Below are positions 29,636 to 30,734 of a stretch of 64,000 nucleotides of DNA, in pieces. The stretch lies in sequence record AP018932, one strand, 5' to 3'. Under the pieces are notes generated by a model. That model was not told the DNA's origin, did not search any database, and worked only from the letters and a program-made list of their open reading frames with translations. The position numbers and the translations under genes are program-made. Within the stretch, counting starts at the first letter, position 1. Each line of letters begins with the position of its first letter. The DNA comes from Escherichia phage KIT03.

Positions 29636-29825
29636 AAGTTTTCCATGGTAAAGGCAGTTTAGTTTTCTTTACTGTTAGTTCAATATCAGGATTCTTTTCT
29701 CTTAATTTAAGGCATTCCTCCCAAGCTCTGATTTCACTAGTGAAAACACAAAATTGACCATTACTAGTACCAACTAAACCGCTATTTACAATAACAATAG
29801 CCCAAGTTTCATGATGCAAAGCCAT
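29628..29825 (-). CDS. cd.5: hypothetical protein
   Basis: 65-aa ORF; start overlaps the terminal stop of the pseT C-terminal reading frame. Confidence 0.6.
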   Translation of the reverse strand: MALHHETWAIVIVNSGLVGTSNGQFCVFTSEIRAWEECLKLREKNPDIELTVKKTKLPLPWKTYE

Positions 29826-30734
29826 TAAAAATCTCCCGAGTCAACTTGCCAGCATTCAACACCGATGCGGCGCCACATTTCAACTACTTGAGTTCGGTCA
29901 TCAATAGCTAATTTCACATCAAAATGTGGTGCGATGTGTTTCCAGAAAATTTCTTCTTTAACTACATCATCTTTACGGGTATCGCGCTGGTTCGCGTTGA
30001 CATTGCATAACTAATGGAACACCAGCAATGTCCTCAACCCATTTACGGGTCATACGATAATATTTCGTTGGGTCTTCTTCGGTTCCACTTTCACGACCTG
30101 AAACGACTACGATTTGATAACCCATAAGAGAATACATCTTGGATAGTTCAACAACCATAGGATTGATAACATCGGTATCGCATTTTTCAAGGTCATAAGG
30201 ACCACGACCATTCATTTTAGCTAGTGTACCATCAACATCAAAAATAACTGCTTTTGGTTTACCAGGAGTCCCTTTATATACCGGAAGACCGAGATACTCT
30301 CGCATGCTTTTATACATTGAGCGTAAAACATCAATTGATACTGCTTTAGTTCCGCGTTTTGAGTTACGTTTAACCAATTCAGTCCAAGGAACATCAAACA
30401 CTTTATGTTCAACTTTCCAGCCGTATTCTTTGGCAAAAGTTTCCCATGCTAGGCGACGTTCAGGATTCAAGTTAGTATCTGAAATGATTACGCCCTTAAC
30501 AGAATCACCACCGTACAGAATACTTTTAGCTGTATCAAACTGCATACCAGTTACGATACCTTCTTTCTTTTTGGTATACTTGTACTCATCGCGTTCTTCA
30601 TGACCCATGATGGATTGACGATAATCATCACAATTAATATTATAAAACCCAGGATTTTTAGCAATAAATTCACGAGCCCAAGTACTCTTACCAGAACCAG
30701 GACAGCCAATAGTCAAAATAATCTTTTTCATCAT
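29825..30734 (-). CDS. pseT: polynucleotide 5'-kinase/3'-phosphatase PseT, interrupted by a +1 frameshift near 29975-29985 (intact ORF 29973..30734; C-terminal ~50 codons continue in another frame to 29825)
   Basis: N-terminal P-loop GCPGSGKST and phosphatase DVDGT motif are in the 253-codon ORF; the following frame encodes [52 protein letters not shown] ending at the expected gene boundary. Confidence 0.85.

Follow-up and report, generated by a model that had tools for sequence, protein, structure and literature searches.

The pseT gene of Escherichia phage KIT03 is interrupted by a frameshift that is probably a genuine inactivating mutation

The T4 polynucleotide kinase Pnkp, product of pseT, combines a kinase domain in residues 1-147 with a DxDxT phosphatase domain in residues 148-301 (PMC3592404). 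When tRNA-Lys is cut by the host anticodon nuclease PrrC, which is activated by the phage peptide Stp, it is repaired by Pnk and RNA ligase 1 (PMC3014915). In the deposited genome of Escherichia phage KIT03 (sequence record AP018932), the reading frame of pseT is broken within the phosphatase part. Here we ask, for a 64,000-nucleotide stretch of that genome (the window), whether the break is a real inactivating mutation, a frameshift that is overcome by recoding or an error of sequencing, three options that the initial annotation of this DNA had left open. The first is now the best supported of them, on the grounds that the changes private to KIT03 in pseT are exclusively missense and that no other gene in the window is broken.

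The locus is orthologous to pseT of T4 and has the same position (pseT.1 ... pseT-cd.5-cd.4). It lies between pseT.1, or an extra 100-aa ORF, and cd.5, with rnlA upstream, and the order is that of T4, Sf22, teqsoen and RB51. The extra ORF (30731-31033, minus strand), which stands between pseT.1 and pseT, is lacking in T4 and is present in Sf22, RB51 (RB32ORF217c), teqsoen and many others; records of the BASEL collection label it 'putative homing endonuclease'. The listing of minus-strand ORFs gives pseT only 253 codons before an early stop, and the last 52 codons of Pnk can be translated in the +1 frame, where they end at 29825. The identity of the gene, the end of the kinase ORF at 29973 and the +1 relation between the two pieces, all read initially from the letters, are confirmed by the ORFs, by alignment to the T4 enzyme (PDB 1LTQ) and by the way in which the Pfam domain is divided. 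Set against the 301-aa T4 Pnk, as had been proposed, the N-terminal piece aligns with residues 1-248 (E = 6e-166) and is about 97% identical to T4 over this range. Profile positions 1-89 of the 143 in HAD_PNKP are found in the 253-aa product and positions 89-143 in the +1 remnant, and deletion of one base in silico yields a 302-aa protein in which positions 1-143 are restored. The remnant had rightly been recognised as a Pnk C-terminus that meets cd.5, and its stop codon and the cd.5 ATG share one base (TAATG), the same stop-start overlap as in T4. Its length had been put at 145 nt, but it measures 160 nt from its first conserved codon, the GAT at 29984, through the stop. Features of the locus and of the genes that bear on its function are summarized in Table 1.

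Table 1. Positions of the pseT pieces, the lesion, the private substitutions and functionally related genes in the 64,000-nt window
Feature	Position	Strand	Remarks
Truncated pseT ORF, 253 aa	29973..30734	-	Full P-loop kinase domain and about 60% to two thirds of the HAD phosphatase domain, then PARYP and TAA; identical to BBG28736.1 / YP_010071692.1
+1-frame remnant, Pnk D250-F301 (T4 numbering), with Lys258 and Asp277/Asp278	29825..29984	-	Translation, Pfam
Lesion: inserted C (coding strand) at 29986 and A>C at 29989	29986..29989	-	Alignment to relatives
R34C (T4 numbering), private C>T	30632	-	Invariant in 26 other Pnks
P132S, private C>T	30338	-	Invariant in 26 other Pnks
A201S, private G>T	30131	-	Variable (A/D/H) in other Pnks
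cd.5, 65 aa	29628..29825	-	Intact; start codon and stop of the pseT remnant overlap; relatives show the same with their intact pseT
rnlA (RNA ligase 1), 374 aa	32465..33589	-	Intact; sealing partner of Pnk; 98% identical to T4
stp, 26-aa activator of PrrC	60141..60221	-	Intact; identical to T4 Stp

The frame break follows Glu247 (T4 numbering), and the stop codon is reached five codons later. The 253-aa ORF matches the AAA_33 profile (E = 2.5e-22) and, like T4 Pnkp, has the P-loop (GCPGSGKS), Asp35, Arg38, Arg126 and the DxDxT nucleophile motif of the phosphatase; K15, S16 and D85 are likewise unchanged. In T4 Pnkp, Lys258 touches the transition-state phosphate and Asp278 is a ligand of the catalytic Mg2+, and both are essential for the phosphatase (PMC3592404). 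In KIT03 these two residues are encoded in the +1 frame only, so that a complete HAD/DxDxT phosphatase domain, with Asp165, Asp167, Ser211, Lys258 and Asp278 in one polypeptide, is not present. On these established structure-function data, the 253-aa product is predicted to be incapable of 3'-phosphatase activity.

The split is already present in the public record, as two separate CDS. A search of protein records finds the 253-aa protein (accessions in Table 1) on one contig only, of 166,848 bp, from Escherichia phage KIT03; its name there is 'polynucleotide kinase'. The only usable start codon in the remnant is a GTG at 29917, and the 30-aa tail that begins there (29825-29917, minus strand) has been deposited as a CDS of its own, BBG28735.1 / YP_010071691.1, 'hypothetical protein'; its UniRef name is PNKP phosphatase domain-containing protein. 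This 30-aa CDS is almost certainly not a gene. The limited literature covered, to which the KIT03 genome paper does not belong, contains no discussion of the split that we could find.

At the junction KIT03 reads GAACCAGCGCGAT, where its relatives read GAACAAGG(C/T)GAT: Sf22 has GAACAAG-GTGAT, and teqsoen and several others have GAACAAG-GCGAT. The version one base shorter, GAACAAGGCGAT, would carry an uninterrupted 302-codon ORF. The extra base had been placed within about 29975..29985, as a bare insertion. The approximate site holds, with the base aligning just outside that interval, but the insertion is accompanied by the neighbouring A>C, and by this alignment the lesion comprises, at minimum, one substitution and one insertion within 4 nt. 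The lesion codons in T4 we take to be CAG GGC; with CAG as the ancestral Gln codon, the change could with equal parsimony be read as G>C together with an insertion following GAAC. A templated complex mutation, with a quasi-palindrome or a direct repeat as donor, was considered as the origin of the lesion and rejected, as no repeat spans 29982-29991 and the vicinity holds the 10-mer only once. Within pseT there is a perfect direct repeat of 9 nt, ACCCGTAAA (coding strand), at 29972-29980 and 30042-30050, 70 nt apart, where it encodes T-R-K twice. One of its copies directly follows the frameshift, probably by chance, and the repeat is too distant to account for the lesion.

Two adjacent pieces in the correct order and in a simple +1 relation, of which the second is perfectly conserved as a protein, could be joined by programmed +1 ribosomal frameshifting or another form of recoding; full-length Pnk would then be made and the split would be regulatory. 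This was among the options first raised, and it is now effectively excluded. Programmed +1 sites of the prfB type have a slippery P-site codon beside a slow codon or a stop within the overlap, mostly also a stimulator further upstream, and are shared by relatives. Both frames are open for only 12 codons (AAT GTC AAC GCG AAC CAG CGC GAT ACC CGT...), and this overlap holds no known +1 slippery motif and no start codon. Only one element looks slippery, the C-CCG that precedes the stop, and it favours a -1 slip, into a frame that ends after five codons. The predicted RNA structure at the junction is not significant (z = -1.3), and there is no homopolymer at the junction for transcriptional slippage. 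The split arrangement is found in no relative, which means that no recoding signal is conserved. With all of this against it, we regard recoding as extremely improbable.

KIT03 belongs to Tequatrovirus and shares about 96% identity with the closest phages (Sf22, teqsoen and GiZh) in the collection with which it was compared, which did not contain KIT03's own record. A 121-nt query across the junction matched 647 phage records, none of them identical and none above 99% identity; among the top matches listed, each spans 120 nt of sequence against the 121 nt of the query. A 29-mer across the junction was not found in IMG/VR, and a 21-mer gave only chance matches in unrelated GC-rich DNA when searched in the JGI metagenomes and GTDB genomes; no T4-like contig with the KIT03 junction occurs in these three large collections. 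An uninterrupted pseT ORF of 301/302 codons is present in all 13 IMG/VR or reference relatives. Five Logan contigs carry a cd.5 identical to that of KIT03, and the insertion is absent wherever they cover pseT, which is complete (301/302 aa) in two of the five and represented by its 3' part only, cut by the contig ends, in the other three. As judged from these searches, the inserted C and the A>C are private to KIT03 among T4-like genomes. The contigs with the exact KIT03 cd.5 were also considered as its nearest relatives, an idea that was given up: their pseT is merely 92-95% identical, and they do not split the private branch.

The 90% protein cluster of T4-like Pnk contains partial entries named 'AAA family ATPase' or 'phosphatase domain-containing' that are assigned to Vibrio parahaemolyticus, Staphylococcus aureus, Achromobacter and Klebsiella. 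Their contigs measure 245-1156 bp, and the entries have the look of T4 or T4-PNK DNA contaminating bacterial assemblies, not of bacterial genes.

A variant confined, among the T4-like sequences searched, to one deposited contig, in a gene that is conserved and intact in every relative examined, may also be an error. The extra base rests on the single deposited assembly of KIT03. On this explanation that assembly would be wrong at the frameshift, and perhaps at the other private missense changes too, and the true Pnk would be intact, with 302 aa. The compression suggested initially, a gel artefact, is not to be expected of a phage genome published in 2019; a local error of assembly or consensus is the form in which the explanation has to be considered, and in that form it is the main rival, a possibility to be taken seriously, if a doubtful one. 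The two changes are clustered within 4 nt of a locally GC-rich stretch, and a substitution and an insertion 3 nt apart can also resemble a local consensus error. On the other hand, the site lacks the homopolymer run at which platform indel errors typically arise, and the remainder of the window speaks for a sound sequence. When the 96 ORFs of phage teqsoen were compared with the ORFs of the whole 64 kb, pseT was the sole real gene found truncated; the other ORFs flagged are explained by the window edge (gp23), by alternative start codons or by spurious antisense ORFs. Isolated 1-nt indels in conserved coding sequence are otherwise lacking: short indels relative to teqsoen are nearly all compensating pairs in divergent mosaic patches, or are intergenic, while the one in pseT is isolated, uncompensated and situated in well-conserved coding sequence. 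The KIT03 sequence in the window is thus not unreliable in general.

Relative to teqsoen, the regions at about 26.4-26.6 kb, 38.1-39.8 kb, 48.1 kb and 50.4 kb are rich in indels and strongly divergent. These regions are apparently mosaic segments, as is typical of T-even genomes, and have no relation to pseT.

Substitutions private to KIT03 were identified in a pile-up of 8-15 relatives over 24.5-36 kb, a base being called private when it is present in no relative. In the flanking genes (about 8-11 kb) 22 private substitutions are synonymous and 7 nonsynonymous; in pseT none is synonymous and four are nonsynonymous (R34C, P132S, A201S and Q248P), in addition to the insertion. The difference between pseT and its flanks is significant by Fisher's exact test (p = 0.008), and leaving out a cluster of eight synonymous changes in rnlA gives p = 0.026; with only four substitutions the statistical weight is modest. 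Three of the four pseT changes alter positions that are invariant in 26 other Pnks, with identities down to 75%. The 61-mers around R34C, P132S and A201S have zero perfect matches among phage records. These three substitutions, like the deposition of the split as two CDS, had gone unmentioned in the initial annotation. With 5 private changes in 910 nt, pseT comes close to the neutral expectation from the synonymous-site divergence of the neighbours, as calculated from the pile-up counts. Because its private changes are missense only, next to flanks in which they are mostly synonymous, the pattern indicates that pseT is under relaxed constraint. A disabling lesion together with an excess of nonsynonymous changes is what would be expected of a pseudogene under relaxed selection, although the numbers are small and a localised sequence error gives the same pattern.

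The eight rnlA changes lie within 85 nt (32711-32795, minus strand) and are all synonymous; they were probably acquired together, as a short patch, by recombination with an unsampled T-even lineage.

About three quarters of random changes are nonsynonymous; random errors, too, would be mostly of this type, and in this respect the substitution pattern suits a faulty assembly as well. The predominance of synonymous private changes in the flanking ~8 kb nevertheless points to a low overall rate of consensus error, and an artefact would require five errors to strike one dispensable gene, over about 650 nt, and none to strike its neighbours. Five random errors so placed, and nowhere else, are less likely than release from selection.

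We therefore favour, as the probable explanation, a real, lineage-specific inactivating frameshift in KIT03 pseT. One inserted C and a neighbouring substitution after Glu247 would end translation five codons on and give a 253-aa protein with the whole 5'-kinase domain and the DxDxT motif but without the final third of the HAD phosphatase fold, to which Lys258 and Asp278 belong. Such a protein would lack 3'-phosphatase and 2',3'-cyclic phosphodiesterase activity and may be unstable, and the gene has apparently been under relaxed selection for some time. On laboratory strains the growth of pnk or rli mutants is normal; only prr+ hosts restrict them, and this restriction is suppressed by stp mutations (PMC3014915). 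Since Pnk-defective T4 is normal on laboratory strains, loss of pseT is evidently tolerated; the repair of PrrC-cut tRNA-Lys by Pnk would be needed only on rare prr+ hosts, which fits relaxed selection. Accompanying damage to stp, as expected if a suppressor had arisen alongside the broken pseT, was looked for and discounted, the gene being identical to that of T4. With stp and rnlA intact, KIT03 would, if the frameshift is real, be pseT-minus and stp-plus, and should be restricted by prr+ hosts.

A truncation that is real need not abolish the kinase. The 253-aa product might be kept as a kinase-only enzyme which, like that of the phosphatase-deficient T4 pseT1, still 5'-phosphorylates RegB-cut mRNAs. 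The kinase residues listed above are intact, the isolated T4 kinase domain (residues 1-181) folds alone (PDB 1LY1), and a part in mRNA decay has been described for the kinase that can be separated from the phosphatase (PMC3014915). Arg34 forms a hydrogen bond with the +2 phosphate, and kinase activity is reported not to require it (PMC2831316); the idea that R34C by itself kills the kinase was dropped for this reason. R34C and P132S nevertheless affect invariant positions of the kinase domain, which argues against continued selection. With two thirds of its HAD fold, the product will probably misfold or form aggregates, and the Pnkp tetramer depends on phosphatase-phosphatase contacts (PMC3592404), an interface that would be lost. 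Residual kinase-only activity is conceivable if the product with its truncated HAD domain is stable; that the truncated gene has been retained for such an activity we consider unlikely.

The favoured explanation, a real inactivating frameshift, has close parallels in T4. Compared with T4 Pnkp itself, KIT03 has its frame broken after Glu247, Lys258 and Asp277/Asp278 out of frame, four private missense changes and a product of 253 aa, not 301/302 aa. It resembles the laboratory T4 pseT mutants (the phosphatase-deficient pseT1 and the pseT deletion) in the loss of 3'-phosphatase, predicted in the case of KIT03, and in the intact rnlA and stp; this genotype is restricted on prr+ E. coli and normal on ordinary strains (PMC3014915). 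KIT03 differs from these mutants in being a natural isolate with a frameshift truncation and further missense changes. Nothing points to a new mechanism: KIT03 would be either a natural member of the known class of pseT-defective T-even phages or an annotation artefact.

If the lesion is real, KIT03 would be a natural counterpart of the classical T4 pseT mutants and would test how dispensable Pnk and RNA ligase 1 (Rnl1) are outside prr+ hosts. Caution would also be needed in predictions of host range for this phage, which has been characterised as infecting O157:H7 and Salmonella. If the assembly is in error, the value of the observation is curatorial only, and RefSeq YP_010071692.1 and YP_010071691.1 are artefacts. 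A wider and speculative reading, for which the odds appear rather long, is that KIT03 is a natural T-even phage without the Pnk/Rnl1 healing arm that has kept Stp and RNA ligase 1; an anti-PrrC counter-defence would then decay in the wild where prr+ hosts are absent, and the 253-aa product might persist as a kinase-only enzyme for mRNA turnover.

A further parallel is offered by accessory genes of T4-like phages that frameshifts have turned into pseudogenes, among them the defective I-TevIII of T4 (T4 annotation), where, as would be the case in KIT03 pseT, a small lesion disables a dispensable T-even gene with intact neighbours. The two cases differ in that homing endonuclease genes are commonly degenerate, whereas pseT is intact in every relative examined.
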